A stretch of 26,098 nt of DNA from assembly GCA_963842945.1 (NCBI GenBank), contig CAWJIM010000014.1:1-26098 (forward strand), given 5' to 3'. Shown here one piece after another: positions 588-26,098 of this stretch (position 1 is the first letter of the stretch; each line of letters begins with the position of its first letter). The notes beneath the pieces were generated by a model. The model searched no databases. It was not told the origin of the DNA and worked only from the letters and a program-made list of their open reading frames with translations. The translations under genes were made by a program, and so were the position numbers. The stretch comes from an uncultured Gemmatimonadales bacterium (GTDB lineage Bacteria; Gemmatimonadota; Gemmatimonadetes; Gemmatimonadales; GWC2-71-9).

Positions 588-769
588 GTATGGCGTTCTG
601 ATGTGCCCCGGTTGAATCGTTCGCTACCGGTGTGATCGGCGGGGCCTCCCGGCCAGCCCCACGGCCACTCAGCCGGTGGCGCAGGCGTTGAGATAAGGAA
701 CCTTCACCGGTCCTTCATAGTTTCCTCAAACTGCCTGATCGAGATTTCAGCACGGTTTCTGGAGGAGAT

Positions 770-1777
770 ATGCCCGTGCTGACGAAGGACGTGTGGGAGG
801 TTTCGGAACAGGACTTTCCCGACACCGCTCCGATCGAGACCCAGCTCCGTTTCCTGCTCCGCTACGCCATCCTGGCCCCCTCGACCAAGAACAGCCAGCC
901 CTGGGCCTTCTCGGTGCACGGAAACCGGATCCATCTCATCGCCGACCTGAGGCGGGGCCAGCTGATCGCGGATCCCGACCGGCGCGAGCTCTACATCAGC
1001 CTGGGTTGCGCGCTGGAGAACCTGCTGGTGGCGGCCGAGCACTTCGGCTTTCGACATGGGGTCAGCTACTTCCCCGAGCCGGGGAACGATGAGTTGGTGG
1101 CGACCGTGTCTTCGCGCCGGGCGGGGTGCCGTCCTACGCCCGGGCGGGTGCCACGTTGAGCGCGATCGTCCGGCGCCACAACGACAACAGCGTTTTCCGT
1201 CCGCGCGCCGGTGCCGGAGCAGCTGCGCCGCCGGCTGATGGCCTGCTGCGTGGAGCCCGAGCTGCGGGTCCACCTGACCGACGACCGCCATTTCCGCCGC
1301 TGGATCGACGCGCTCACCCTCCAGGCCGATCGGGTCGAGTTCGCCAACCCGGCGTTCCGGAAGGAGCTGGGCTACTGGATCGGCCAGGGAGTGTTCGGCG
1401 CGCCGCCGCTGATGGCGGGGCTGGGCCGGTTGGCGGTGTCCGAAGATCGACCTGGGCGAGCCGGTGGCCGGCAGGACCACGCGATCCTGGAGAGCGCAGC
1501 CCTGCTGGGCCTGGTCACGCGCCTCGGGCGATAGCCACCTCGCCCACGTCCGGACCGGCCAGCTGTTCGAGCGGCTCTGGCTCACGGCCACGGCGATGGG
1601 CGTGAGCCTCCATCCGATGAGCCAGACCATGCGGCATCCGGAGCTGCGGGCCGCGGTGGGGGAGCTGCTCCCTTCAGCCGGGGTGGACACCGCAGCACCT
1701 GTTCCGGGTAGGGTTCTCCTCCCGAAACGATGAGCAGCACACGCCGCGGCGGACCGGTGGAAGACGTGCTGGTCTAA
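770..1777 (+). CDS. Acg-family FMN-binding nitroreductase-like oxidoreductase (several apparent frameshifts)
   Basis: GGAGGAG RBS before ATG 770. Motifs in successive frames: [88 protein letters not shown] (1775-1777). Confidence 0.85.
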
Positions 1778-1863
1778 ACGCACAACTCCAGCTTCTTCAT
1801 CCTTTCGATCATCAGCTGCGGGGCTCATCCTGCGGACCAGCCTTCATCTTAGGAGAATTCCCC

Positions 1864-3422
1864 ATGGGTACTGCAATCAGGCAGGCAAGATTTGCCACCC
1901 TCCCTCGCGCGGCCGCCGGCTTCAAGCCATGCATTCCCATCCGCGCCCGCTACGACAACTGGATCGGCGGCGAGTACGTCGCCGCCGGTCCGCGGCCAGT
2001 ACTTCATCAATCCCGACCCCGATCACCGGGCAGCCGCTGTGTGAGGTGGCCCGCTCGACCCATGAGGACGTGGACAAGGCGCTCGACGCGGCGCACGCCG
2101 CCGCCCTCAGCTGGAACACCACGTCGCCCGCGTACCGCGCCAACATCCTCAACCGGATCGCCGACCGGCTCGGAGCGAACCTCGAGGCCATCGCGCTCAT
2201 CGAGACCATCGACAACGGCAAGCCGATCCGGGAGACCATGCGACGCCGACCTGCCGCTCGCCATCGACCACTTCCGCTACTTCGCCGGCTGCATCCGGGC
2301 CCAGGAAGGCGGGATCTCCGAGCTCGACGCCGACACCGTCGCCTATCACTTCCACGAGCCGCTCGGCGTCGTGGCCCAGATCATCCCGTGGAACTTCCCG
2401 CTGCTCATGGCGACCTGGAAGCTGGCGCCGGCGCTCGCCGCCGGGAACTGCGTGGTGCTCAAGCCGGCCGAGCAGACGCCGGTGTCGATCATGGCGTTCA
2501 TGGAGCTCATCGCCGACATCCTGCCGAGCGGCGTGGTGAACGTGGTGCAGGGCTTCGGCGTCGAGGCGGGCAAGCCGCTGGCGCAGAGCCCGCGGGTGGC
2601 CAAGGTGGCGTTCACCGGCGAGACGACCACCGGCCGGCTCATCATGCAGTACGCCTCCGAGAACCTCATTCCGGTGACGCTGGAGCTGGGCGGCAAGTCG
2701 CCCAACATCTTCTTCGCCGACGTGCATGGACGCCGACGACGACTTCTTCGACAAGGCGCTCGAGGGGTTCGCGATGTTCGCCCTCAACCAGGGCGAGGTC
2801 TGCACCTGTCCCTCCCGGGCCCTGGTGCAGGAGTCGATCTACGACCGGTTCATGGAGCGCGCGGTGGCACGGATGAAGGCGATCGTCGAGGGCAATCCGC
2901 TCGACCCCAACACGATGATCGGGGCCCAGGCCTCCAACGACCAGCTCGAGAAGATCCTGAGCTACATCGACATCGGGAAGAAGGAAGGCGCCAAGGTGCT
3001 CACCGGCGGCGCGCGCCGGGTCCACGCGGGCGAGCTGGAGGAGGGCTACTACGTCCAGCCGACGATCCTCGAGGGCCACAACAGGATGCGGGTCTTCCAG
3101 GAGGAGATCTTCGGGCCGGTGGTGTCGGTCACCAAGTTCAAGGACCAGGACGACGCGCTCGCCATCGCCAACGACACGCTCTACGGCCTGGGCGCCGGCC
3201 TCTGGAGCCGGGACGCCAACACCTGCTACCGGATGGGCCGCGCGATCAAGGCGGGCCGGGTCTGGACCAACTGCTATCACGCCTATCCCGGCGCACGCGG
3301 CGTTCGGCGGCTACAAGCAGTCGGGCATCGGGCGCGAGAACCACAGGATGATGCTGGATCACTACCAGCAGACGAAGAACATGCTGGTCAGCTACAGCCC
3401 CAAGAAGCTTGGCTTCTTCTGA
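1864..3422 (+). CDS. aldB: AldB/ExaC-type NAD-dependent (acet)aldehyde dehydrogenase (frameshifted)
   Basis: AGGAG RBS. Motifs [64 protein letters not shown] (catalytic Cys), [21 protein letters not shown]-terminal KKLGFF-TGA. Confidence 0.92.
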
Positions 3423-3790
3423 TGGAGAACGTGGCGCGCGTCGAGATCACCGACGCGGCCGCGACCGTGCTGCGCCAGCTGGAGGCGCAGCACGGTCCCC
3501 TGCTGTTCCACCAGTCGGGCGGCTGCTGCGACGGCAGCTCGCCGATGTGCTTTCCCCGGGCGAGTTCAAGTGGGCCAGCGGGACGTGCTGCTGGGCGAGG
3601 TGGAGGGCGTGCCGGTCTACATCGGTGCGCTGCAGTACGAGGTGTGGCGGCACACCCAGCTGCTGATCGACGTGGTGCCCGGGCGCGGCGGCGGCTTCTC
3701 CCTCGAGGCCCCGCTCGGGGTGCGGTTCCTCACCCGATCGCGGGTGTTCGACCAGCGGAACAGGCCTGGCTCGCAGGCGTGCGGAGCTAG
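3422..3790 (+). CDS. DUF779 family protein (usual partner of aldB; frameshifted)
   Basis: ATG overlaps the aldB stop (TGATG). [20 protein letters not shown], then in a shifted frame [35 protein letters not shown]. Confidence 0.88.
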
Positions 3791-5449
3791 TCAGCCGTAG
3801 CTACCTGGCGCATCTTCTTGGGCTTCGTACTACTCCGCCGCTGAAATTCGCCGCCGGGTAGCCACTGCGGCATCGCGGAATCATTCGCCACCGCGATCGT
3901 CACGTCGCGCACATACTCGGCGAACTGTTTGGATCCCTCGAGGTTCAATGGATTGAGGGTTCCCCACTGGTCGCTCGGCTGGTGGTAGTGCTGCTCCAGA
4001 TACTCCTTCACCTTGGCATCGACGAACTGCTTCGTTCCCTGCACCGGTACCGTCCCCAGCGCCATGTAGAGCGAGGGCACGCCGGCCCGGGCAAAGGGAT
4101 AGTTGTCGGCCCGGAGGAAGAAGCCCTCCTCCGGATACGGATCCGGCGACACCTTGAGTCCCATCTGCTCGGCCGTTCTCCGCGCGGCTCGGCCCAGGGT
4201 GCTCAGCTCCACCCCCAGCGGGGCCGCATCCTTCTTGGGACCGAGCAGCTCGATCCCGTCGTCGAGATTCAGGTTGGCGGCAATGCGATCGATCGAAATC
4301 GGTCCCGCGCAGACAAAGGCGTACGCTCCGAAGAGGCCCCATTCCTCCGCGGTCGTGAAGAGGAATGTCAGCGAGCGCGCCTGCGGGATGCTGCGCGAAC
4401 ACTCGCGCCAGCGCCAGCAGCGCCGTCACCCCGGAACCGTCGTCCAGCGTGCCATTGTAGATCGAGTCGCCCTGGACCGGCTTGCCGATGCCGTAGGCGT
4501 CCCAGTGCGCGCTCAGCACGACGTGCTGATCCGCCAGAGTCGATTCGGTTCCCCGTACCGATGCGACCACATTATGCGAGGTCATCGTGCTGGTCTGGGT
4601 GCGGAACTTGACCGCGAGCCTCACGCCTAGCGGAAAGGCTCGGAAACCGGGCTTCTCCGCAGCCTTAAGTACTGCCGGCAGTGAGCCGGACTTCGGCGGC
4701 AGCAGCCGAGCCAGCGCGGTGTCGGTGATGCCGCCCAGGAAGCGGAGCCCGTTGTCGTCCACGTCCGACGCCAGAAAACGGCCGACCCTCACCGGCCCCT
4801 GGGTGAACGCGCCGTTGGGCCGAATCACCAGCATGCCCACGGCGCCCCGCCGCTCGAGGTCGGCCAGCTTGGCGCCGAAGTCGGAGAACCGTGAAGCGCG
4901 CACGCCGTTGAAGCGGAGCGTGTCCCCGGGGATGGTGGGCTCGCCGAAGAGCATGACGGCGATCTTGCCCTTGAGATCGGTCCCGGCAAAGTCGTTCCAC
5001 TTATACATCGGCGCGTCGATGCCGTAGCCCACGAACACCAGGTCGCCCGATGCCTCGACGTCCGGCCTCCGCCCCCCATTAACGAAGGTGGCTTCCCTTC
5101 CCGGCGCGAGCTCGCCGGAGATCCGTCCGCTGAGGCGCGCCTCGACCACGGGCGACGCCGAGTCGGGCCGCTGCACCAGGAGCTGAACCGGCTGCAGCCA
5201 GCTTGCGCCCGAGTCTCCCGGCGTGGGTGCGGCACCGGGCCGGACCCCAAAGCTCTGCAGCTCGGAGATGAGATAGGCGGTGGTGAGCTCTTCCCCCCGC
5301 TTTCCCGGATACCGTCCCTCGAAGAAATCGGAGGAGAAGAAGCGGAGCCGGGCTGTCAGCTCCTGGGTCGAGATCGCGAGCGAATCGGATGTCTGTGCGG
5401 AGAGCTGGGGCGCTGTTAGCGCCAGCACCAAGACGAGAAGTATTAGCAT
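3787..5449 (-). CDS. Secreted M28-family metallopeptidase with PA domain (one frameshift near 4385)
   Basis: Signal peptide; EGRYPG; PA-domain [51 protein letters not shown]. Joins ORF 3881..5449 to ORF 3787..4212. Confidence 0.88.
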
Positions 5450-5492
5450 CCCTATTAAGAAGGGTAGAAACCGAATACCGTCAAGGACGCAC

Positions 5493-5520
5493 TCGTTCCG
5501 TCGTTCCGCCGTTCCGTCGT
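5493..5520. repeat. 8-bp-period tandem repeat (YCGTTCCG)x3.5
   Basis: TCGTTCCG TCGTTCCG CCGTTCCG TCGT between the divergent M28 and MFS genes. Confidence 0.8.
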
Positions 5521-5530
5521 ATCTTCCACC

Positions 5531-6807
5531 ATGCCCAACCCGGGAAAGCAGGTCCAGCGCACCTACCTGTTGCTGACCCTGCTTTCCACTCTCTCCGCCT
5601 CGTTCATCTGGGGCATCAACACCCTCTTCCTGCTCGACGCCGGACTCAGCAACGCCGAGGCGTTCGCCGCCAACGCGTTCTTCACCGCGGCATGGTGGTC
5701 TTCGAGGTGCCGACCGGAGTGGTGGCCGACACCTGGGGCCGCCGCACGTCCTACCTGCTCGGCGCCGCGACGCTCCTGGTGTCCACCCTGCTCTACCTCT
5801 GGATGTGGCGCACCCACGCGCCGCTCTGGGGCTGGGCCATCGCGTCGGTGCTGCTCGGTCTCGGCTTCACCTTCTTCTCCGGAGCCACCGAGGCCTGGCT
5901 GGTGGACGCGCTCACCTTCACCGGCGTCAAGGACAGCCTGGAGTCGGTCCTGGCCCGGGGACAGGTGGTGGGCGGCGCCGCGATGCTGGGCGGCTCGGCT
6001 GCCGGCGGCGTGGTCGCGCAGGCCACCAATCTGGGCGTGCCCTACATCATGCGGTCGGTCATGCTGGGCCTGACCCTGGTGGCCGCGTTGGTCTGGATGA
6101 AGGACCTCGGCTTTACCCCCAACCGGCGCAGCGGACTGGTCAAGAGGTGCGCCAGGTGCTCGCGAGCCTCCATCGACAGCGGCTGGCGCAACCCGCCGGT
6201 GCGCTGGCTGATGCTGGGCGCGCTGTTCGCCGGAGGAGTCGGCATCTATGCCTTCTACGGTCTGCAGCCCTATCTGCTTCAGCTCTACGGCAATCCCCGT
6301 GCGTTCGGCGTCGCGGGGCTGGCCGCTGCCATCGTGGCCGGGACCCAGATGGTGGCGGGATTCCTGGCCCCTCATATCGGACTGGTGTTTCGCCGTCGCA
6401 CCGGCGCCCTGATCGCCAGCTATGCCGCCGGCACCGGGTGCCTCCTCGGGCTGGGGTTGACCTCGAGCTTTCCGGTTGCGGTCGGGCTGCTGGTGATCTG
6501 GGGACTCAGCTTCGCGATCGCAATGCCCATCCGCCAGACCTACATCAACGGCATCATCCCCAGCCAGCAGCGGGCGACGGTGCTCTCGTTCGACAGCCTG
6601 ATGAGCTCGGCCGGTGGCGTCGTCGCGCAGCCGGCGCTTGGCCGGGTGGCCGATCTCTACGGCTACGCCCGATCCTACGTCGTCTGTGCGGCGATCCAAT
6701 TGGTAGCGGTGCCGTTCCTGGTGCTGGCGCGGCGGGAGAGAGCCGAGTCCGATGAGATAACGGCGGGGAAGCGGAGGGCCGGAGAGGCGGAGACGGCTGG
6801 CCAGTAG
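5531..6807 (+). CDS. MFS transporter (frameshift near 5690)
   Basis: N-terminus in ORF 5531 (YLLLTLLSTLSASFIWGINTLFLLDAGLS) continues in ORF 5389 (FEVPTGVVADTWGRRTS, MFS motif A-like). About 12 hydrophobic segments; IPSQQRATVLSFDS. Confidence 0.88.
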
Positions 6808-6840
6808 GCATCACCGACCGCCGTTCCACCCTTCCGCCAG

Positions 6841-7731
6841 TTACGCACTCGGCAGTTCCGCGGTCGGGGCCCACGGCCTGAGGTCCATTCCGAAATCGTC
6901 CTTCAACCTCTGATACCAGGCGTCGTCATCCAGCGCGCCCCAGCCGATCCACTCCTCGTCGGAAAAGCTCTTGCGGTAATCGAGAAAGGGAGCGGCGTCG
7001 GGACCGACCGGGTGGCGGAGCTGCCAGGTGCCGCTCTCCGCGATCTCGAGCATCTTGTCGCCCACCAGTGAGGCGGGCCGATCCGTCTGCAGGCTGGCGG
7101 TGAAGAGTGCGCTGAAGCGCTGCTCGTGGGGATACTGCGAGCGGCTGTGATAATCGGCGATGAGCCGTGCGGCGGGAGTGTCGATGATGCCGGGCTCGAC
7201 TATGGCGACCCGAACGTTGAACGGCTTCAGCTCCTGGGCCAGGCCTTCGCTCAGGCCCTCCAGCGCAAACTTGGTTGCCTGATACGGCGTCATCGGCGCC
7301 ATCGCGATCTTGCCGGAGATGGAGGAGACGTTGATGATGCAGCCGCTCCGCCGATCCCGCATGCCGGGGACCACCGCCTGGATGCAACGAATCACCCCGA
7401 AATAGTTCGTCTCCATCACAGCGCGAAACACGCCGAGCGGGGTCTCTTCGACTGAGCCGATCGGCGCGAATCCGGCGTTGTTTACCAGCACGTCGATCGG
7501 TCCGCTCTCCCGGATTATCCGGGCAATCCCGTCTCTCACCGAGGCATCCGAATCCACGTCTATCACCGAGAGCTGGACCGCCAGTCCCTCCCGCTCGACC
7601 GTTTGGCGCAGCTCGGCGCCCCGCCCCAGGTCGCGCATCGTGGCATGGACCCGGTATCCGGCTCGGCCGAACGCGACCGCGGTGGCCATGCCGATTCCGG
7701 AACTGGATCCAGTGATGAGAACGGTTGCCAT
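6841..7731 (-). CDS. Classical short-chain dehydrogenase/reductase
   Basis: ITGSSSGIG, LVNNAG, catalytic S and YQATK; GGAGG RBS upstream. Confidence 0.93.
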   Translation of the reverse strand: MATVLITGSSSGIGMATAVAFGRAGYRVHATMRDLGRGAELRQTVEREGLAVQLSVIDVDSDASVRDGIARIIRESGPIDVLVNNAGFAPIGSVEETPLGVFRAVMETNYFGVIRCIQAVVPGMRDRRSGCIINVSSISGKIAMAPMTPYQATKFALEGLSEGLAQELKPFNVRVAIVEPGIIDTPAARLIADYHSRSQYPHEQRFSALFTASLQTDRPASLVGDKMLEIAESGTWQLRHPVGPDAAPFLDYRKSFSDEEWIGWGALDDDAWYQRLKDDFGMDLRPWAPTAELPSA

Positions 7732-7844
7732 AGTGAGACCCTCCGGGTTGACGTGCTTCGCGACGAGGAAGCAGCAGAGCGTGCTCCAGGTTGCGTTGAG
7801 CGGAACGGGAGGTCAATACCGGGCATCTATCCCGGCGACAGCTC

Positions 7845-7912
7845 GGCTGGCCTCCTGGGCCGGCTCGGCATCGAGCCAACATGATCATGATGGGCCCGGC
7901 GAAGCCGGGCGT
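7845..7912. repeat. Dispersed copy of the 68-bp palindromic element at 520-587
   Basis: 7868-7912 matches 543-587 at 44 of 45 nt; the 5' part GGCYGG..CCTCCTGGGC is also shared. Confidence 0.9.
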
Positions 7913-7987
7913 TTAGTCCGGAAACGTTCGCACGATCAGCTCAGCCAAGCCTCGCCGTATCCCCGCGCGACCGGTATACTTCAGCAA

Positions 7988-9037
7988 ATGCGACTCATCC
8001 TCACTTTGGCCGCCGCCCTGGGCTTCGCGCTTGGGTGCGGGGACAACGGGACCGGGCCCGGACCGGCACCGAATAGAGACGGCGCCCGGCTGGCCGGGCA
8101 ACTCGACGGGCTGGCCGACTCGGTGGATGCCGGCGGCTATTCGCCTGCGGCCGAGGCACTGCATCACGCCGCGGAGATCGTGCGACTCACCGGTCACGCC
8201 ACTCCGGTAAGCGTGAGCGTCGACCGAGTCGCCAAGAATTTTCTTGCGGTGGGCGAACAGATCGACTTCCCCAATCTGGTCTGCACCTGGCCCTCCGACA
8301 CCGGCGTCGCTCAGCCGGACACGGCCGGCGTTCCGCTGCCCGATACGACCGGCGTGTTCCCACCGCTGCCGCCCGATTCGATTGACCTTCCGCCGGTCGA
8401 CAGCGGCCTACTGCCGCCCGACATGCCTCCCATTCCAATCGACAGCGGCGTCATCCGCCCGCCTCCGGTTCCCGAGTGTCACGAGGATGGGAGCTTCTCG
8501 ATGCGGACGCTCATTGCCTGGGAGCCGGAGCATTTGAATGAGGTGGTCCGGCTGGTGGCGTATCTCGGCTCCAACGGAGTCGAGCCCGGCGTCCCGGATG
8601 TCATGACCGGTCTTCCCGGAGGTTCGACCGACCCATCTCCACCGACTGCGCCGCCCGATTCCGGGAGCGGCAGCGGTGGCAACCCCGGTGGATTCCCCGG
8701 GTTCATGGGCGAGTATCTGGTGCGGGACGTGGGCAGCTGGTACGCGGTGGAAGGGACCCAGACCAACGACATCGTCAGCTCGGGCGGCAGTTGCTCCGCC
8801 GATCGGGCGACGTTCGACTGGGCCCAGTTCGACTGCACCGCGGCCCGGTACCGCTTCGAGTTCTCGATGAAGGTGGACGCCCTCCGCTTCGACCCGCTCA
8901 CCGGATCGCGGGGAGAACCCGAGGGCACTCATGACCTCGCGATGAGTGCCACTGAGATAGATGGCGTGAGGCTCACCTGGCAGTTCTGGAATCCACCTCC
9001 GCCTCCGCTGCCGCCGGATTCGGTGGTCGCGGAGTAA
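7988..9037 (+). CDS. Hypothetical Pro-rich lipoprotein
   Basis: MRLILTLAAALGFALGC lipobox; Pro/Asp-rich low-complexity inserts; four further Cys. The ORF-track start at 7478 overlaps the SDR and is unlikely. TATACT lies 7 nt before the ATG. Confidence 0.75.
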   Translation: MRLILTLAAALGFALGCGDNGTGPGPAPNRDGARLAGQLDGLADSVDAGGYSPAAEALHHAAEIVRLTGHATPVSVSVDRVAKNFLAVGEQIDFPNLVCTWPSDTGVAQPDTAGVPLPDTTGVFPPLPPDSIDLPPVDSGLLPPDMPPIPIDSGVIRPPPVPECHEDGSFSMRTLIAWEPEHLNEVVRLVAYLGSNGVEPGVPDVMTGLPGGSTDPSPPTAPPDSGSGSGGNPGGFPGFMGEYLVRDVGSWYAVEGTQTNDIVSSGGSCSADRATFDWAQFDCTAARYRFEFSMKVDALRFDPLTGSRGEPEGTHDLAMSATEIDGVRLTWQFWNPPPPPLPPDSVVAE

Positions 9038-9067
9038 CACGGCAGCTCTGCCCTGAAACATTCCCTG

Positions 9068-10684
9068 ATGCACCAGCGCGTAGCACTGCTCGCCGCCATT
9101 CTCACAACCCTGGCACAGCCCGCGCGCCTGAATGCGCAGGAGCACGACCACCAGCACAAGATCGGACAATTGGGTCGAGTGGTCTTTCCGGTCTCCTGTA
9201 CACCTCAGGCCCGGCAGCGCTTCGAGCACGCGATGGCGGTGCTGCACTCGTTCTGGTGGGAGGAGGGTGACCGCGCCTTCGGCCAGGTGCTCGAGGCCGA
9301 CTCCAGCTGCGCCATGGCCTACTGGGGCAAGGCGCTCAACGCCTGGGGCAATCCGTTCGCCGGCGGGCCCACCGGCGACGCGCTCACCAAGGGAGCCGAG
9401 GCAGCCCGGCATGCCTCGTCGCTGCCGGCGGGGACTGCACGAGAGCGCGGATTCATTGCGGCAACCGCGGCCCTCTACCACAACGCCGGCTCCACTCCCA
9501 ACTCCGCGCGGCTCAAGGCCTACGCCGACAGCATGGCCCGGCTGTATCAGCGGTTCCCCAAGGACGTGGAGGTCGCGATCTACTACGCGCTGAGCCAGCT
9601 GGCTACGGCGCCGCGCACCGACACCACCTTCGCCCAACAGAAGCGGGCGATCGCCATCCTCGATCCGTTATTCGCCCAACATCCCGATCATCCGGGACTG
9701 GCTCACTACGTCATCCACGCCACCGACAGCCCCGGCCTCGCCCGTCTCGGTCTCGATGCGGCCCGGCGCTACGCGAAGATCGCGCCGGCAGCCCCCCACG
9801 CTCAGCACATGCCCTCGCACATCTTCGTCCGGCTCGGACTCTGGAACGAGACCATCGAGTCGAACTGGAAGTCCTATCAGGCAGGCCACGACTACGCCAA
9901 GGCGATGGGGATCGCAGGCACGATGGAGGAGTTCCACGCCATCGACTACGCCGTCTACGGCTATCTGCAGCGGGGCCAGGACTCGGCCGCGCGCGCGGCG
10001 GTGGCCAGGGCGATGCGGACGAAGCCCAGTCTTCGCGGCCTGGTCAGCGACTACAATCGGACCGCGATGGCAGCGAGGGTTCCGCTGGAAAGGGGCGACT
10101 GGGCCGAAGCGGCGGAGCTCAGGGCGCCGGCGGAATCACTGGGTCCGGTGGCGAGTGCCCTGCTCCGGTTCACCCACGCGATCGGCCGCGCGCGCAGCGG
10201 CCGGCCCGATGCGGCTGGTCCCGAGGTGAAGGCGCTCGATTCGATCGCCGGCGCGCTGGAGCAGAAGGGCGAGCCCTACTGGTCGCGGGTGGTCCGGATC
10301 AAGCACGATGCGGCGGAGGCGTGGGCGCGTTGGGCGGCGGGTGACACCGCCGGTGGGCTGGCGCTGGCCCGGGCGGCGGCCGATTCGGAGGAGGTCACCG
10401 ACAAACACCAGGTCACGCCGGGAGAGCTGCTCCCGGCGCGCGAGCTGGAGGGCGACATGCTACTGCTGGCCAGGCGCTACGCCGAGGCTCGTGCAGCGTA
10501 TAAAGGAACACTGGCCCGGGAGCGCAACCGGGCCCGGAGCCTGTTCGGCGTGGCGCGAGCGGCCGAACTGGCCGGCGACCGCGATGCTGCGGTTGCAGGC
10601 TATCGCGAATTTCTCGGGTTGATGGCCAGCTCCGATGGGAATCGTCCGGAGCTGGCCACCGCAAAGGCGTTCTCGGGCTACTGA
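9068..10684 (+). CDS. Exported TPR-like helical-repeat protein with a His cluster
   Basis: Signal peptide then QEHDHQH; LGRVVFPVSC, LHSFWW, CAMAYWG, HPDHPGLAHYVIHATD, APAAPHAQHMPSHIF; Ala-rich TPR-like helices. Confidence 0.85.
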   Translation: MHQRVALLAAILTTLAQPARLNAQEHDHQHKIGQLGRVVFPVSCTPQARQRFEHAMAVLHSFWWEEGDRAFGQVLEADSSCAMAYWGKALNAWGNPFAGGPTGDALTKGAEAARHASSLPAGTARERGFIAATAALYHNAGSTPNSARLKAYADSMARLYQRFPKDVEVAIYYALSQLATAPRTDTTFAQQKRAIAILDPLFAQHPDHPGLAHYVIHATDSPGLARLGLDAARRYAKIAPAAPHAQHMPSHIFVRLGLWNETIESNWKSYQAGHDYAKAMGIAGTMEEFHAIDYAVYGYLQRGQDSAARAAVARAMRTKPSLRGLVSDYNRTAMAARVPLERGDWAEAAELRAPAESLGPVASALLRFTHAIGRARSGRPDAAGPEVKALDSIAGALEQKGEPYWSRVVRIKHDAAEAWARWAAGDTAGGLALARAAADSEEVTDKHQVTPGELLPARELEGDMLLLARRYAEARAAYKGTLARERNRARSLFGVARAAELAGDRDAAVAGYREFLGLMASSDGNRPELATAKAFSGY

Positions 10685-11550
10685 CTCGAGTCGGACTCCG
10701 CTTCTCCAGTCTCCTGCCCCTGGCCCGCACCCATCTCCCGAAGCTCGGCGCCGGCCTGAGCGCTGGCCAGGTACCGCACTGCATCTTTCGCCATGGTAGC
10801 GGGTGGGACCTTGCTGGGATCGGACGTTTGGTTCTTGAGCGCCCAGACGTTGGTGATGAAGTCGGCGTCCTTGGGCTCAGTCTTCTTCCAGGTCACCCCC
10901 TTGGGGAGGACACCCGTTGCCGGCGGCATCGGACCGTTCAGGGTGACCTTCTTGGCGACCATCGTCATCCCCTGGCTCGGGTCGACCCACCGGAGCATGA
11001 CCATGGGAGCGCCCGGCATGACGCAGGCGGAGCCCTCCTTCGCCTTGTACACGTCGCACTTGTGGCCGGCGATGGTCTCCGAGCCGGTCTTCTCGCCGAA
11101 CAGGGTAATGAACGCGTCGGCGTCGCTTCCCCCGCCCAGCTGAGTGGCGAGTTTGATATTCTCCCGGAACCGCGCCTTGCCGGAGGCATCCAGCGCCGCG
11201 TACTCCCGCGCCAGATGAGGCCGCAAGGCGGCGCTGACCTCGCCGCTTTGCTGGCCACCCATCTTGTTGTAGGTGTACTGCGAGTCTCGCGTCGTGACCA
11301 CGAAGGAGCGCACGGTGTCCTTCTTCCCACCCGCCTCGAACGGCATAACCATTTTGATGATCATGCCGTCGGCAGCGACTCCCATCTCATAGGTAGGGGC
11401 CGCACCGGGCTGCTGCTTCTGGGCGCTCACGTCGTATACGATGTAGGCGGTCTTGACCGAGCCGCCGGTAAGGGCAAAGGGATTGTCCTGCGCTGCAAGA
11501 GAACCGGGCAAGAGAAGCGCGAGAATCGCTGCTCGGCGCGGGGTAAACAT
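10678..11550 (-). CDS. Exported hypothetical protein (DUF4412-like segment)
   Basis: GGAG RBS before ATG 11550; signal peptide ending SLAA-Q; KTGSETIAGHKCDVY resembles the DUF4412/GLPGLI-type motif. Confidence 0.7.
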   Translation of the reverse strand: MFTPRRAAILALLLPGSLAAQDNPFALTGGSVKTAYIVYDVSAQKQQPGAAPTYEMGVAADGMIIKMVMPFEAGGKKDTVRSFVVTTRDSQYTYNKMGGQQSGEVSAALRPHLAREYAALDASGKARFRENIKLATQLGGGSDADAFITLFGEKTGSETIAGHKCDVYKAKEGSACVMPGAPMVMLRWVDPSQGMTMVAKKVTLNGPMPPATGVLPKGVTWKKTEPKDADFITNVWALKNQTSDPSKVPPATMAKDAVRYLASAQAGAELREMGAGQGQETGEAESDSSQ

Positions 11551-11759
11551 GGGAAACACTCCTGAGAACGGGAGGCTACTAAGGACTGGGGCCACTAAGA
11601 TCGTCACCTACGGAGCCCGCGCGCCAGGGGGCAATTGTGAGCACAGTGGATCTGGCAGTCCCTGGGGACGACAACTCAGATCGGTGGCACTCAAGCCATT
11701 CACGGTGCATCTTTCGAGGGGCAGAACAGATTCCAGTGGACCCACAGAAGGGAACGCGC

Positions 11760-12332
11760 ATGCGAACTCTTTATCTCGCTGTATCTCTGGTGGCTCTGCC
11801 GGCGGTGCTCACCGCCCAGCAGGCGAAGCCGCTCGAGGTCGGCGCCGCGGCACCCGACTTCAGCATGAAGGGCGCCACCCGCTACGGCGTCCTGGCCAAG
11901 CCGGTGCGCCTGTCAGACTTCAAGGGGAAGACCGTGGTTCTGGCCTTCTTCTACAAGGCGCGAACCAAGGGCTGAACCGTCCAGATGAACGCGTACCGTG
12001 ATCAGTACGCGACGCTCTTCAAGGACGGCCAGGGTGTGGTGCTCATCGCCATCAGCGCGGATCCAGACACTGCGCTGGCTTCGTGGGCCAAGGATTCGGA
12101 GTTTCCGTTCCTCTTCGCCAGCGACAGCGGGACTGCCGTGGCCAAGAAGTACGGCGCCCTGGCCGACAACCCGGGGATGACCAACCGCAACCTGTTCGTG
12201 GTGGGACCGGATGGGAAAATTGCCTACCGGGCGACGCCGTTCCAGGAGGTCGATCCCAAAGCGTACAAGGATCTTGGGGCAGCGATTCAGAAGGCGGACG
12301 GGCGGACGGGCGGAGGGTCGGAGGGGAGATAG
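11760..12332 (+). CDS. Exported AhpC/TSA (BCP/PrxQ-like) peroxiredoxin, selenoprotein (Sec72 from UGA 11973-11975)
   Basis: ORFs 11637..11975 and 11985..12332 are in the same frame, separated only by TGA. The joined 190-aa protein reads VGAAAPDF..LSDFKGKTVVLAFFYKARTKG-U-TVQM..IAISAD..FPFLFASD..YGA..RNLFVVGPDGKIAY. The UGA sits at the peroxidatic TxxC position and a hairpin follows. Confidence 0.87.
11976..12021 (+). promoter_or_regulatory. Bacterial SECIS-like hairpin
   Basis: CGCGTAC (11990-11996) / GTACGCG (12005-12011) perfect 7-bp stem; 8-nt loop CGUGAUCA with G at position 2; loop starts 21 nt after the UGA; possible lower stem TGAA/TTCA. Confidence 0.75.
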
Positions 12333-12533
12333 CCGTATCCTGTCCGCCAGATCACCCGGCAACTGGTGCGATTCGTAGCCGAGTAATGAACAAATGTTGA
12401 CGGGCTGGCGAGAAGTAACGGATCCTTTACCGGATGGTCATGGTTTGCGGGTAATCCGGGCTTCAGCGGCGGCGGCCTTGGCCCATGGTCTATCTGGCGC
12501 GATCCAGGCCCCAGACGCAGATTCGGAATTGCC

Positions 12534-13406
12534 ATGACCGCCCCCACCATCGAGGGACCCCAGCGCAAGCCATACGATGACGAGATCGACGTCTACGGCC
12601 TCACCCATACGGGAAAGGTCCGGAAGGAGAACCAGGACCACTTCCTCGTCTGCTCCCTGAAGCGGCAGATGGTGGTCCGCCAGACCAGCCTGCCCACCCT
12701 CACCGGCATCACCCGGGAAGGCGACCGGCTCGCCTTTCTCATGATGGTGGCCGACGGCGTCGGGGGCGGCGTCAAGGGCGAGGAGGCCAGCCGGATCGCG
12801 GTCGAGGCGGCCACCCAGTACGTACAGCGCAGCATGCGCTGCTACTATGCCGCCAGCTCCGAGGACGACGAGGAGTTCTTCGAGGCTCTGCGGGAGGCTG
12901 CACTCGGCTGCCATGGGGAACTGGTCCGCCGGGGTGAGAAGGACCCGCAAAACCGGGGGATGGCCACCACACTGACGCTCTATCTCGGCGTGTGGCCCTG
13001 CGCCTATCTGCTTCAGGTGGGGGACAGCCGCTGCTACATCCTGGAGCAGGGGCAGCTGACCCAGATCACCCGCGACCAGACCATGGCGCAGGAGCTGATC
13101 GATCTCGGCGTCATGAAGCCGGCGGATGCCAAGCGCAGCAAGCTCGGGCATACGCTCTCGAGCGCGATCGGTGGACGCAACACCGAGCCGGTGGTCACCC
13201 GGCGCGAACAGAAGTGGGGCAACGTGGCGCTGCTCTGCAGCGACGGCCTCACCCAGCACGTTTCCGACGACCGGATCCGCGAGCGGCTGCTCACCATGAA
13301 ATCGTCGCGCCAGGTTTGTGAGGACCTGCTGAAGGATGCACTCGCAGACGGTGGGACCGACAACATCACCCTGATCGTCGCCCGGACAATCCCGGGAAAT
13401 CGGTAA
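12534..13406 (+). CDS. PP2C/PPM-family Ser/Thr protein phosphatase
   Basis: THTGKVRKENQD, VADGVGG, MATTLT, VGDSRCY, TRDQT, LLCSDGL, GGTDNIT. Confidence 0.95.
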   Translation: MTAPTIEGPQRKPYDDEIDVYGLTHTGKVRKENQDHFLVCSLKRQMVVRQTSLPTLTGITREGDRLAFLMMVADGVGGGVKGEEASRIAVEAATQYVQRSMRCYYAASSEDDEEFFEALREAALGCHGELVRRGEKDPQNRGMATTLTLYLGVWPCAYLLQVGDSRCYILEQGQLTQITRDQTMAQELIDLGVMKPADAKRSKLGHTLSSAIGGRNTEPVVTRREQKWGNVALLCSDGLTQHVSDDRIRERLLTMKSSRQVCEDLLKDALADGGTDNITLIVARTIPGNR

Positions 13407-20354: not shown

Positions 20355-23064
20355 TTGCAAGATGGATTGAGTCGCCTTCAGGCTGCGCTCGCCGGCCAGT
20401 ACCGCATCGAGCGCGAGCTCGGCCGCGGTGGTATGGCAGTGGTGTATCTCGCCCACGACCTCCGCCACGACCGGCCGGTGGCACTCAAGGTGCTCCATCC
20501 GGAATTGGCCGAGACAGTCGGCACGGACCGATTCCTCCGCGAGATCAAGCTCGCCGCCCGCCTGCAGCATCCCCACATCGTTTCAGTGCATGACAGCGGG
20601 ACGACGGCTGCTGCGGGGGAGCAAGGCCGCGGGGCGGCGCATCTCTGGTTCACCATGCCCTACATCGAAGGCGAGAGCCTGCGCGACCGGTTGCGTCGCG
20701 AGCGGCAGCTCCCCATCGACGAAGCGGTTCGCATCACCCGGGAGGTCGCCCTCGCCCTCGATTTCGCCCATCGGCACGGGATCATCCACCGCGACGTGAA
20801 GCCGGAGAACATTCTGCTGGTGGACGGCCAGGCGCTGGTCGCCGATTTCGGCATCGGACGAGCGCTGGATGCTGCGGCAGGTAACGAGCAGATCACCAAC
20901 ACCGGATTCGCGGTCGGAACCCCGGCGTACATGAGCCCGGAGCAGTCGCTCGGCGAGCGCGACATCGACGGCAAGACCGATGTGTACAGCCTGGGCGTCG
21001 TGCTCTACGAGATGCTGGCCGGCGAGGCTCCGTTCAGCGGATCCAGCGCGCAGTCGATCACCGCCAAACGGCTGACCGGTGAGATCCCCAGCCTTCGCCG
21101 GCTCCGGCCCTCGGTGCCGGAACAGCTCGAGCGGGTCGTGCTCACCGCCCTGGCCACGATTCCGGCAGACCGGTTCGCCACGCCGGGCCAGCTGGCGCAG
21201 GCGTTGTCGCCCAATGTGGCCGGGATGACTTCCTCCCCCACCATCGCGACTCCTGCAGGGACGGCCGAGACTTCGGCATCTCCAACGACTCGTCGTCGCA
21301 AGCCGGTTCCCGCGTGGCTCACCTTCGTGCTCGGACTGCTGGTCACGGCGACGATGGGGATGTTCCTCTGGCAGCGGAGCCGCCATCCGGCCGAGACGCC
21401 GGGCACCAAGATGCTGGCGGTGCTGCCCTTCAAGAACATGGGCGCCGCCGGGCGACCAGTACTTCGCCGACGGGCTCACCGAGGAGATCACCAGCCGTCT
21501 GGCCGGCGTCTCCGACCTCGGCGTGGTCTCCCGCACCAGCACCGATCCATATAAAGGATCGACCAAGAGTATCCGGCAGATCGGGCAGGAGCTCGGAGTC
21601 GGCTACATCCTCGAGGGCAGCGTCCGCTGGGAGAAGTCGCCCGACGGGAGCAGCAAGGTACGGGTCACGCCCCAGCTCATCCGGGTGGCGGACGACCGGC
21701 ACCTCTGGACCGACCGCTACGATGCGCAGCTGGCGGACGTGTTCCAGGTGCAGTCCAGCATCGCGGAGCAGGTGACCAGTGCGATGAACCTGGCGCTGGA
21801 TCCCTCGGAGAAGCAGGCGATCAACGAGCGGCCGACGGCGAACACCGAGGCCTACGACTTTTACCTGCGGGGCATCGAGTACGCCAACCGCGGGCCGGGA
21901 CGAGAGGACGTTCGGAATTCGGTTCGGATGTTTCGGCGGGCGGCCGAGCTGGACTCGAATTTCGCGCAGGCCTGGGCCCGGTTGTCTCAGGGACGCTCCA
22001 GCGAGTACTGGTTTTTCTACGATCGCAGCGAAGCCGCCCTGGCGGAGGCGAAAGCGGCGGCGGAGCGCGCACTCCGGTTGCGTCCCAATCTCCCCGAGCC
22101 CCACGTGGCGATGGGTTATTACTACTACTGGGGCAAGCTGGACTACGATCGCGCGCTGCAGGAGCTGGCTCAGGCGCGGGAGAAACAGCCCAACAATGCA
22201 GAGTTGTTCATGGCATCTGCGGCGGTCCAGCGGCGCCAGGGCCGCTGGGCGGGCTCGATCGCGGACTTCGAGAAGGCGGTACAGCTGAACCCGCGATCGG
22301 CCGATGCGATCGGGAACCTGTCACAGACCTACAACCTGGTTCGCAAGTATGATCTGGCCTGTGCGACCGCCGACAAGGGGATAGGCATCGGGCCCGACCT
22401 CTCCTTCCCCCACTGGCTCAAGCTCCAATGCCTCATCGGAATGGACAGCGTGGAGCCGGCGAGGCAGGCGTTTCGCGCGGCTTTGCGGGGCGTAGACTTC
22501 GTGGAGATGAGCCGGATGGCCGCGGGAACCGGGGCGATTGCCAGCTTCGCGGTGGTGCCGAGCTTCCTGTTCACCGCCGATTCCGTCGTTCAGCCCAGGA
22601 TCGAGGCGCTCACTTCCGCCGACGTCGCCGACACTGCCGGCCTGTACATGCTCAAGTCCGACATGTATCGCATTCGGGGCCGGGCTGCGCGGGACCGGGC
22701 CTACCTCGACTCGGCACGCACCATCCTGGAATCCCAGGTGAAGGCGCATCCCGAGGAGGCGAATTTCCATGCCCGACTGGGCCTGGTGTACGCCAATCAA
22801 GGACGAAAGACCGACGCGGTGCGGGAAGGCGAGACCGCCGTGAAGCTGCTGCCGGTGAGCCGGGAGGCATACCGTGGCGCTAATATCCAGGCGGCGCTCG
22901 CCATGATCTATGCGACGGTCGGTATGCGATCTGAGGCAATCGACCAGTTAAAGTATCTGCTCTCGGTACCCTCGGAGCTCAGCGTCGGCCTGTTGCGGAA
23001 CGATCCGCGGTGGGCGGCGCTCCGAGGAGATGAGAGGTTTGAGGACTTAGTGGGTAAGCGATAA
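20355..23064 (+). CDS. Hanks-type Ser/Thr kinase with TM, TolB-like and TPR domains (frameshift near 21450)
   Basis: LGRGGMAVV, VALK, HRDVKPEN, DFG, GTPAYMSPE, DVYSLG; TM helix; LAVLPFKN..DQYFADGLTEEI..LEGSVR; TPR repeats; LRNDPRWAALRGDERF. TTG start is uncertain. Confidence 0.92.
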
Positions 23065-23121: not shown

Positions 23122-23442
23122 CTAACGAACTCCCATCCCCATCTCTTTCAGCAGCAACAGATCGCCCTCGATCACCTCCGGTTTGCTCAGTTGGTCCTTG
23201 AAGGGATCCTTCTGGACGAATTCAGCCGCTTTGCGGGTGGCCTCAGTCGACCCCTGGCGATCCTCGAACAGGGTAATCGAGAGAATGTCCGTCTCACCGG
23301 TCCTCATCACCCCGTAACTATGAAAGCCGCGGATATCGTGGATGGTGGGAAGAAACTTTTCCTCGATACGGCGCACGAACTGATCGATCATCTCGGTGGT
23401 GGCAGGGGTCTTGGTCGAGTAACGACGGATAGTCGCGTACAT
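23122..23442 (-). CDS. Small ABM-like (dimeric alpha-beta barrel) protein
   Basis: AGGAGG RBS; MYATIRRY..FLP..I.GF.SY..SITLFED...PEVIEGD pattern typical of ABM-like proteins. Confidence 0.78.
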   Translation of the reverse strand: MYATIRRYSTKTPATTEMIDQFVRRIEEKFLPTIHDIRGFHSYGVMRTGETDILSITLFEDRQGSTEATRKAAEFVQKDPFKDQLSKPEVIEGDLLLLKEMGMGVR

Positions 23443-23493: not shown

Positions 23494-23533
23494 AATAGAA
23501 AACCGGCGGAGCTATAGCTTGCTCAGCCGGTTT
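23494..23533 (-). terminator. Intrinsic terminator (riboswitch expression platform)
   Basis: Minus strand AAACCGGC-U-GAGC-AAGCUAUA-GCUC-C-GCCGGUUU followed by UCUAUU. The 5' arm is the 3' end of the aptamer. Confidence 0.75.
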
Positions 23534-23597
23534 CGCGATTAGCTCCATCCCGCGCATGGGCGACCAGGAACTGCCGCGGGGTTTCATAGCTTCTGAG
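23522..23597 (-). ncRNA. c-di-GMP-II (class II cyclic di-GMP) riboswitch-like aptamer
   Basis: P1 CUCAG/CUGAG; P2 AGC/GCU with kink-turn (UAU loop, tandem GA/GA); P3 CCCGCG/CGCGGG; pseudoknot P4 GGUCGC pairing with GCGA-AA-CC (AA bulge). Lies between a promoter and a terminator. Confidence 0.8.
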
Positions 23598-23607
23598 GTG
23601 AAATCGC

Positions 23608-23677: not shown

Positions 23678-24151
23678 TTACATCTTATAAAACCCTCCCA
23701 GAATCGCGCCGTAAATCAGGTGCGCAACCAGGATCGAGATCGGAGTCTGATATCCATAGTTGAGCGCCAGAAACCCGGGAGGCTCGAGCTGGCGGGTCAC
23801 GGTGGGACCCTTCTGCTCGCTCGCCATGCGCGGATGCATGCTCGACAGCAGGCTTACGCCGGCAGTCAGCACGAAGCTGGCCTGGACCGCTCCGATCGCC
23901 GCGCCGATCCACCAGTTGGTCCGTCCTAACGAGTGAAAGGCTGCGACGTAAGCCAGCGAGAAGATCCAGCCGTTCAGCAGGTGGACCAGAAATCCGACCA
24001 GCTTGGCCCGCTCGCGGTTGGGAGTGAAGATCGAACCCAGGATGTAGGGAAGATTGATGCGAGTGAGGCCAAGACCCTGGCTGCCGGCCAGCACCGTCGT
24101 GAGGGCCAGCGTCGCCACCCCGCTCCAGAGCAGCCAGTCTCTCCAGTTCAT
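23678..24151 (-). CDS. Hypothetical 4-TM membrane protein coupled to the GH15 gene
   Basis: ATGA overlap with the GH15 stop; hydrophobic helices; His-containing motifs VHLLNG, MHPRM, AHLIYG. Confidence 0.8.
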   Translation of the reverse strand: MNWRDWLLWSGVATLALTTVLAGSQGLGLTRINLPYILGSIFTPNRERAKLVGFLVHLLNGWIFSLAYVAAFHSLGRTNWWIGAAIGAVQASFVLTAGVSLLSSMHPRMASEQKGPTVTRQLEPPGFLALNYGYQTPISILVAHLIYGAILGGFYKM

Positions 24152-26052: not shown

Positions 26053-26098
26053 GTCGAAGCGCGGTGCAGTCGAAGTGCTCCGGCGGCTGCCTCATCAA
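26049..26098 (-). CDS. 3' end of an upstream gene (partial), possibly 6-phosphogluconolactonase/NagB superfamily
   Basis: Frame reads ..DEAAAGALRLHRAST-TGA with a GTGA overlap onto the GH15 start. DxAAA is typical of Pgl/NagB C-termini, but only 15 residues are visible. Confidence 0.35.
   Translation of the reverse strand, partial: DEAAAGALRLHRAST

Follow-up and report, generated by a model that had tools for sequence, protein, structure and literature searches.

Selenocysteine (Sec) is an established catalytic residue of bacterial peroxiredoxins, where the family 'Prx' is recognised by the AhpC-TSA domain (PF00578) and a TxxU motif and has PrxU of Eubacterium acidaminophilum as its prototype (PMC13188914, PMC1794560). 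The Pro and Arg of peroxiredoxins have been described as absolutely conserved, the Pro belonging to the essential site (PMC4749874) and acting as a barrier to solvent (PMC3337327), and the motif was found in 99.3% of 38,739 peroxiredoxin-like sequences, a set itself gathered with active-site profiles (PMC5302317). About a third of PrxQ proteins are without a resolving Cys (PMC4749874). Outside the cytoplasm, a precedent comes from Caulobacter crescentus, in which ScsB reduces TlpA and TlpA reduces the periplasmic PrxQ-type protein PprX (PMC3322552), and exported bacterial selenoproteins are represented by SaoB and MccSep (bioRxiv 10.1101/2022.07.06.499078; 10.1101/2025.11.18.688581). There are thus separate precedents for Sec in peroxiredoxins, for peroxiredoxins in the periplasm and for selenoproteins that are exported. 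The open literature yielded no Gemmatimonadota or exported Sec peroxiredoxin and no Sec-linked loss of Pro, and the supplements of surveys may list members. Why enzymes use Sec over Cys, and what changes in the protein around Sec, is an open question that is usually probed by artificial swaps.

The gene described here lies in a 26,098-nucleotide stretch of DNA from an uncultured Gemmatimonadales bacterium (contig CAWJIM010000014.1), hereafter the window. Like the Sec 'Prx' family, it combines an AhpC-TSA domain, TxxU at the peroxidatic site and a UGA with a downstream SECIS element, and it has Cys homologues; unlike that family, for which the review gives a highly conserved PxxxTxxU, the Pro is replaced in 179 of the 195 Sec genes collected here, and the protein has a predicted signal peptide, where the main text of the review contains none of the terms 'periplasm', 'signal peptide' and 'Gemmatimonad' (PMC13188914). 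The best sequence and fold matches are to BCP/PrxQ and AhpE proteins (2YWN, 3HJP, 5ENU, 1XVW), at about 25% identity and a TM score of 0.83 on the target. The likeness extends to the Gly before the catalytic residue and to the existence of 1-Cys members (PMC4749874, PMC5302317), but in the window protein Tyr stands at the Pro position, Ala replaces the Gly of G(V/I)SxD, Sec takes the place of Cys, and a signal peptide is predicted at the N-terminus. PprX is a BCP/PrxQ-type protein with a signal sequence, a TlpA-like thioredoxin and a DsbD-family donor (PMC3322552); in the present case the signal sequence is predicted and the partners are suggested by gene linkage. However, PprX uses Cys, with the full PXXXTXXC motif and a resolving Cys, in contrast to the Sec, the Tyr65 and the absence of Cys here, and its membrane donor is ScsB whereas ours would be of the stand-alone CcdA type, so that the likeness drawn here is one of architecture (PMC3322552). 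SaoB and MccSep set a precedent for selenoproteins outside the cytoplasm, although their folds and functions are unrelated.

The gene, its product and the hairpin

Translated with table 11, the locus gives two open reading frames, the first ending at 11975 and the second starting at 11985, and it is as two pieces that it is annotated. When TGA is read as U the same nucleotides form one open frame of 190 aa that places U72 in FFYKARTKG-U-TVQM and has no Cys at all, which bears out the initial annotation, where the two frames had been joined across the TGA (Table 1). The Pfam AhpC-TSA match spans the TGA (residues 27-156, 102 bits against a cut-off of 26, E 2.3e-29) and T69-K-G-U72 supplies the (T/S)xxU element, which places the protein in the catalogue family 'Prx' as defined by PF00578 plus TxxU. 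A structure predicted with Cys in place of Sec has a pLDDT of 89.9 and puts U72 within helix 70-81, and in a Foldseek search this model matched structures of BCP and Prx proteins best, at E 4e-14 to 1e-12.

Table 1. Features of the selenoprotein gene, with positions counted along the window
Feature	Position	Strand	Basis or remark
Single gene for a 190-aa peroxiredoxin-fold selenoprotein	11760..12332	+	annotation splits the gene at the TGA
Predicted cleavable signal peptide, residues 1-19	11760..11816	+	hydrophobic stretch ending LTA-QQ
Tyr65 (TAC) at the Pro position of Pxxx(T/S)xxC	11952..11954	+	alignment to 2YWN and 3HJP; Cys homologues have FFP-K/R-ART
Thr69, conserved Thr of the active-site motif	11964..11966	+	Thr/Ser in 193/195 Sec orthologues
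In-frame TGA, Sec72, peroxidatic position	11973..11975	+	TGA 195, Cys 36, TAC 1 of 232 distinct orthologues
Bacterial SECIS, 7-bp stem and 8-nt loop	11990..12011	+	arms 11990-11996/12005-12011, loop 11997-12004
Arg143, catalytic Arg (RNLFVV)	12186..12188	+	invariant in a 61-protein alignment; aligns with the Arg of 2YWN

Measured against a strict definition of a peroxiredoxin, the protein has the Thr/Ser at -3, the redox residue starting helix 2, the fold and the Arg, the last at the downstream position where the initial annotation had located it. The Pro of Pxxx(T/S)xxC, present in 36/36 Cys orthologues, is replaced by Tyr65, and we therefore class the protein as peroxiredoxin-derived and predicted to work like one, not as a canonical member. 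The initial annotation had read Lys as the replacement for the Pro, an assignment rejected by alignment to solved BCP proteins and to the Cys homologues: the residue concerned is Tyr65 (Phe in most relatives), and Lys66 is the ordinary next residue. None of the curated peroxiredoxin equivalog models reaches its cut-off, the best being NF006960 (61.7 bits against 140), and the PrxU model NF040737 scores 57.4 against a cut-off of 270, below the equivalog threshold. As regards PrxQ/BCP features, G71 is present, and the segment A-I-S-A-D at 97-101 keeps the Ser and Asp of G(V/I)SxD but not the Gly. The single redox residue without a resolving partner, also anticipated in the initial annotation, is general, with no other Cys in the core of 194/195 Sec orthologues; since the Cys orthologues are 1-Cys proteins as well (36/36), the missing resolving residue is not specific to Sec.

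The hairpin reported in the initial annotation was recovered as described, with seven Watson-Crick pairs, a loop that opens C-G-U and thus has G at position 2, and a distance of 21 nt from the UGA. The bacterial SECIS model calls for a loop of 3-9 nt, a stem of 4-16 bp, a G within the first two loop positions, a spacing of 16-37 nt and an energy of at most -7.5 kcal/mol (PMC13188914, Fig. 2 legend); with these values applied directly, the window hairpin lies inside every range (8 nt, 7 bp, C-G-U, 21 nt, -10.5 kcal/mol). Taken alone, it is only modestly unusual when compared with shuffled sequence: over 36 nt the energy of -10.5 kcal/mol corresponds to a z of -1.75, with 13/200 shuffles as good, over 58 nt the z is -2.76 (3/200 shuffles), and over 88-100 nt it is about -0.7. 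An Rfam search of the window gave no match at the hairpin. That it is more than chance is argued by the conserved pairs and the frozen synonymous codons across TGA loci. Six or seven of the seven pairs are kept in 180/180 distinct TGA loci examined, a point that the initial annotation had proposed to check in homologues, and 179/180 of these loci encode the AYRDQY peptide with one of three codon strings, whereas five Cys loci with the same peptide use five different strings. The outer pair varies among the 180 loci (C-G 84, U-A 34, G-C 27, A-U 1, U-G 1, unpaired 33); because the other six of the seven pairs are invariant, the covariation signal, which 42/500 shuffles equal over 6 distinct rows, rests on a single pair. 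Some Cys genes (10/22) retain a hairpin remnant of 5-6 pairs.

Occurrence in Gemmatimonadota and the selenocysteine machinery

The best 80 loci in named genomes all belong to Gemmatimonadota, mostly to Gemmatimonadales MAGs, and the gene is present in 323/401 genomes sampled from the phylum at a cut-off of 1e-38, a tally that takes in two unpublished genomes (G196 and G219), neither of which carries any conclusion by itself. It occurs in seven families; five small families have it in 0/25 genomes, and in the window's own genus its distribution is patchy (9/24). The set of 232 distinct orthologues comprises best hits, genera chosen for spread and genomes that seemingly have Cys, so the proportions of TGA (195), Cys (36) and TAC (1) at the catalytic codon do not represent a random sample, but they do place TGA and Cys as alternatives in the peroxidatic column, the check that the initial annotation had proposed. 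Among the 120 matches listed from a protein collection, 101 are full Cys forms, 16 are second halves (112-118 aa) of split Sec genes, and three are full-length proteins with Leu or Trp at the catalytic column; a metagenome scan with a Cys query returned three close loci among the 80 listed. For annotation, this means that about 80% of the genomes sampled from a phylum abundant in soil carry a gene whose listed product is a fragment that lacks the catalytic residue. The ATG that starts the split second frame is replaced by Leu, His, Phe or Val in 7/195 Sec orthologues, which indicates that this start is not needed.

The codon also follows the machinery that would decode it. The search for selA covered 80 genomes, of which 63 have a TGA copy, 16 have only Cys copies and one has only the paralogue; selA was found in 63/63 of those with TGA and was missing from 14/16 of the Cys-only genomes, all of which are at least 91% complete. 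An earlier genome set had included two Cys-form genomes without selA (G049 and G057) and one TGA-form genome, 85% complete, with no selA match (G054). Two contigs of relatives (85-95% identity) span the TGA and have the same letters there; in a search of sequencing runs, no run contained half of the words, and no RNA run was listed. The alternation of Cys with TGA, the conserved hairpin and the tie to selA make Sec recoding nearly certain, and we conclude that the TGA is almost certainly read as selenocysteine.

The initial annotation implied that selABCD would be found elsewhere in the genome, and the bin to which the window contig belongs (G000, 87% complete and 6% contaminated) does contain selA, selB, selD and two tRNA-Sec genes, so called from tRNAs with a UCA anticodon. 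Here selA is in three frameshifted pieces, selB is in pieces that include the C-terminal part and scores below the model cut-off, and selD carries an in-frame TGA and hairpin of its own. The bin is mixed, however: the window contig (C14) shows synteny to another contig of this bin, C4, with an identity of 78-88% (window 629-13381 and 23681-26081), and contig C15 duplicates C1 at 85% identity, including the second tRNA-Sec. The window contig thus seems to stem from the second of two related populations, and for this reason the Sec machinery is not assignable to it with certainty. Among congeners, selA was found in 34/36. C4 holds a second copy of the Sec gene (L053, G000:C4:83480-83965) that is 82% identical and has an identical hairpin, with its signal-peptide region out of frame, probably through an assembly indel. 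Several genes of the window (770-3790, 3787-5449 and 20355-23064) are also split across frames in a manner consistent with assembly indels; they include nitroreductase-like, aldehyde dehydrogenase and M28 peptidase genes, named from their translations, and a Ser/Thr kinase-TPR gene.

Related genes were met in several arrangements. Sec and Cys copies stand as tandem duplicates in two genomes of genus g12 (L303 and L372, in G129 and G241), and one genome (G325) has two Sec copies side by side (L272). A cytoplasmic BCP-like gene of the bin (L055, G000:C24:121777-122157, minus strand) has a TGA at its catalytic column (YPGNNTPG-TGA-NRQ); it retains the Pro, and the hairpin that lies downstream is a different one. 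Genes of this type also occur in G036 and G042. Matches of 39-45% identity that appeared to contain a TGA were considered as a second exported Sec family and rejected, as they encode Cys (or Gly/Ser/Ala) at the catalytic position and have the TGA at another site.

Selenocysteine and the active-site proline

The selenium form of this protein has swapped the active-site Pro for Tyr or Phe, and its Cys relatives nearly always carry Pro. Only 16 of the 195 Sec genes keep the Pro, and the 179 without it have Phe (116), Tyr (59), Ser (2), Ile (1) or Val (1) in its place. The Pro is present in 36/36 Cys genes and in 100/101 Cys proteins among the 120 protein matches listed, so that Cys without Pro is seen in 1/137, the exception being a protein with Tyr and Cys (P0028). 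The coupling between the Pro column and the Sec column (phi 0.83) exceeds that of any other column (at most 0.49). Sec alone does not force the loss, as the cytoplasmic Sec-BCP of the same genomes keeps Pro (3/3). Possible intermediates are this Tyr + Cys protein and a Sec + Pro gene (L374) among Sec + Tyr sisters (L378) in one genus, where the difference is local.

The history of these switches was examined on trees that rest on about 148 columns, from alignments in which the Pro and catalytic columns and the residues encoded by the SECIS were masked, and with rows thinned to 1 in 4 or 1 in 5 of L056-L135 and to every second Cys protein. A single clade of Cys genes is rejected (22 versus 30 rows, AU p 3.6e-10); the Cys forms are polyphyletic, and the Pro/Cys coupling therefore recurs. 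Under parsimony, a tree of 150 rows requires 12 changes and one of 228 rows requires 20. On the careful 52-row tree there are eight supported independent pairs, of which 6-7 go in the same direction and none in the opposite one (sign test, median p 0.016); two larger quick trees give 4 and 7 supported pairs with none opposite, non-significant at p 0.125 each. A model of dependent evolution is preferred over independence with a likelihood ratio of 92, against a highest value of 14.2 in 35 null simulations, and puts Sec without Pro at the root (0.94); this result is rough, as some rates lie at their bounds and the model was run on a weakly resolved quick tree of 237 rows. Several Cys genes are supported sisters of Sec genes of the same family (L257/L325, L287/L339/L355 and L308/L052). 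The hairpin is identical across Sec forms, which would argue for one origin of Sec with repeated returns to Cys. For Prx, no event of this kind, from Sec to Cys, is recorded in a 2006 survey (PMC1794560), and a 2026 review describes such events as rare (PMC13188914); in the Gemmatimonadota family they seem to be many.

The chemistry of selenium offers a reason why the Pro might be given up. Even at neutral pH Sec is ionised, and it withstands irreversible oxidation, properties that would explain a dispensable Pro shield, and the strong preference for Phe or Tyr suggests a positive role of the aromatic residue, which we speculate may shield the oxidised selenium or shape a hydrophobic substrate pocket. 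A wider reading, which we would rate a little short of an even chance, is that selenium and the 'invariant' Pro solve one catalytic problem in alternative ways throughout the phylum, with an ancestral Sec peroxidase that was exported and had an aromatic residue in place of the Pro, at least ten returns to Cys + Pro upon loss of the Sec machinery, and an envelope peroxide defence fed by CcdA-TlpA. If true, evolution would have supplied a repeated natural experiment on those requirements of a Cys enzyme from which a Sec enzyme is free. The family offers many natural Sec/Cys switches paired with a switch at the Pro site, through which the role of the Pro and the cost of losing selenium become measurable. 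Motif-based peroxiredoxin classifiers that require the Pro would miss this protein even once its halves are joined.

Predicted export, a candidate reductant and a proposed mechanism

Signal peptides were called by a simple heuristic that scores out of 3. The window gene scores 3 of 3, which agrees with the signal peptide and periplasmic location given in the initial annotation, and the call is also positive in 151/195 Sec orthologues; the remainder comprise 24 for which the range contained no Met (in many of them a hydrophobic stretch can be seen), three that are truncated and 17 with a lower score. Elsewhere the call is positive in 34/37 non-Sec orthologues and in 0/4 cytoplasmic-type homologues. 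The peptide has no lipobox and no twin Arg, the Leu at -3 is atypical, and Gln20 is nearly invariant. The selenoprotein is thus likely to be exported to the periplasm, an indication that bacteria of aerobic soil life station a selenium enzyme in their envelope.

The commonest neighbour of the Sec gene is a convergent pair that encodes a WCxxC TlpA/ResA-like protein and CcdA. The tlpA gene adjoins 97/179 Pro-less Sec genes, nearly always together with ccdA (75 are unlinked and seven loci are too short), and this linkage is seen in all seven families that have the gene, whereas it occurs within 1.1-3 kb in 0/16 Sec genes with Pro and in 0/36 Cys genes. The arrangement is convergent and not an operon, and the window copy and some 12 copies of its own genus do not stand beside ccdA-tlpA, the Sec gene of this genus having moved away from the pair. 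In the bin, an ispG-ccdA-tlpA-prx cluster is found at C2:315-317 kb, the prx being an exported 1-Cys paralogue with 39% identity; this paralogue is linked to ccdA-tlpA in 25/28 intact copies and in 0/7 copies lacking Cys or Pro. A separate ResA-like protein and a second CcdA are encoded elsewhere in the bin, which suggests that the ccdA-tlpA pair is not the sole one for cytochrome c maturation. TlpA is found in 78/80 genomes regardless of the catalytic form, and it may accordingly have other clients; the idea that the aromatic residue marks genomes with TlpA was rejected on the same count. The initial annotation called for an unknown extracytoplasmic reductant, a claim that is weakened by this linkage and by the resemblance to the ScsB-TlpA-PprX architecture: CcdA and the TlpA-like WCxxC protein are probably the evident candidate. 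Six paralogue copies (L156, L159, L161, L168, L169 and L170) have Gly, Ser or Ala for the catalytic Cys in intact frames and no ccdA-tlpA nearby, and are candidate non-catalytic proteins of the peroxiredoxin fold.

The reading that we favour, and hold to be moderately probable, is that the gene encodes an exported PrxQ/BCP-type peroxiredoxin with a single Sec. This enzyme would act on peroxides within the cell envelope, and a TlpA-like thioredoxin supplied with electrons by CcdA would regenerate it. SelB on the hairpin would almost surely deliver Sec-tRNA to UGA 72, to judge from the machinery, the hairpin and the Cys/TGA alternation. The predicted signal peptide would very probably be removed past residue 19 (Ala19), with the protein folding in the periplasm. 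By analogy with the peroxiredoxin mechanism, the selenolate of Sec72 would then attack a hydroperoxide held by Thr69 and Arg143 to give a selenenic acid, a step that we consider likely. As there is no resolving Cys, we propose resolution by TlpA: the attacking Cys of the WCxxC protein would form and resolve a mixed selenenyl-sulfide, and CcdA would pass electrons from cytoplasmic thioredoxin to TlpA, to which, on the grounds of gene linkage, we give slightly better than even chances. Selenium would relax the need for Pro, with an aromatic residue favoured, and loss of the Sec machinery would lead to Cys + Pro; the correlation is observed, and the chemical cause is our proposal for it.

Several other explanations deserve weight. 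It is very improbable that the TGA results from a base-call error, serves as a genuine stop (leaving two small genes or a pseudogene) or is read as Trp or Cys: the assembly is indeed rich in indels, with split ORFs and selA in three pieces, and the second half, of 112-118 aa, does have protein entries of its own in databases (16 of the 120 matches listed), yet 195 orthologues from independent assemblies have the TGA and the hairpin in common, the TGA tracks selA, tRNAs with the UCA anticodon are called as tRNA-Sec, and the first half alone would end short of the catalytic residue. Because the Pro that the Tyr/Phe form has lost is described as absolutely conserved, it does not follow that this form is an active peroxidase. 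The exported selenoprotein might no longer be mainly a peroxidase, its site being reshaped by the aromatic residue for envelope thiol repair or an oxidation relay, for example. This we regard as unlikely, because Thr69, Arg143, Gly71 and the fold are retained and because orthologues with the full Pro-Thr-Cys-Arg site repeatedly replace the Sec form in genomes without selA, which suggests the same job, although the loss of a Pro found in 99.3% of 38,739 sequences (PMC5302317), the failure to reach any curated equivalog cut-off (best 61.7 bits against 140) and the presence in the same bin of an exported 1-Cys paralogue and a cytoplasmic Sec-BCP that both retain the Pro all speak for it.

The recycling of a periplasmic Sec peroxidase could also proceed otherwise, through a small thiol, a diselenide dimer or another Dsb protein, with ccdA-tlpA only an ancestral neighbour. 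The convergent orientation, the loss of linkage in the window's genus and in all Pro-bearing forms, and the near-universal presence of TlpA in the phylum fit such a reading, as does, weakly, the lack of a close fusion with a reductant among 46 longer homologues, itself a weak test. We nonetheless judge it rather unlikely, given that the ccdA-tlpA pair adjoins two distinct exported paralogues of Prx, each in an arrangement of its own, that catalytically degenerate paralogue copies are never linked (0/7 versus 25/28), and that Caulobacter PprX is reduced by TlpA (PMC3322552). The coupling of Pro and Sec, in turn, could be historical, with one early loss of Pro and Cys + Pro re-entering by gene transfer or by recombination of a 21-nt block that contains the two codons, processes that could yield part of the pattern. 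In favour of this, Cys forms never occur at the ccdA-tlpA site (0/36), some Cys genes fall outside the Sec clade of their family (L256/L258), a switch from Tyr/Phe to Pro takes two substitutions, several Cys/Sec pairs match slightly less well in the block -18..-1 than on either side of it, and the trees are weakly resolved. Set against this are the Cys genes that are supported sisters of same-family Sec genes, the Sec gene with Pro and its Tyr sister in genus g43, whose block is 89% identical (L374/L378), and the hairpin remnant of 5-6 pairs in 10/22 Cys genes; even under transfer, Cys without Pro is almost unseen (1/137). A purely historical coupling is in our view improbable, though it merits real consideration beside the functional coupling that we prefer.

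Around the window copy, the neighbours are a 309-aa protein without a Pfam match and a PP2C phosphatase. A conserved operon at this site was considered and rejected, as the neighbours are not common beyond close relatives, and a promoter and terminator scan found nothing. Three regions of the window encode predicted exported or long proteins without a Pfam match, namely 7478-9037 and 9068-10684 on the plus strand and 10678-11607 on the minus strand, the last being transcribed divergently from the Sec gene. At 23516-23603 on the minus strand, the window matches the c-di-GMP-II-GAG riboswitch (Rfam RF03169, 42.2 bits against a gathering threshold of 40), upstream of a 106-aa ABM-like ORF at 23122-23442.
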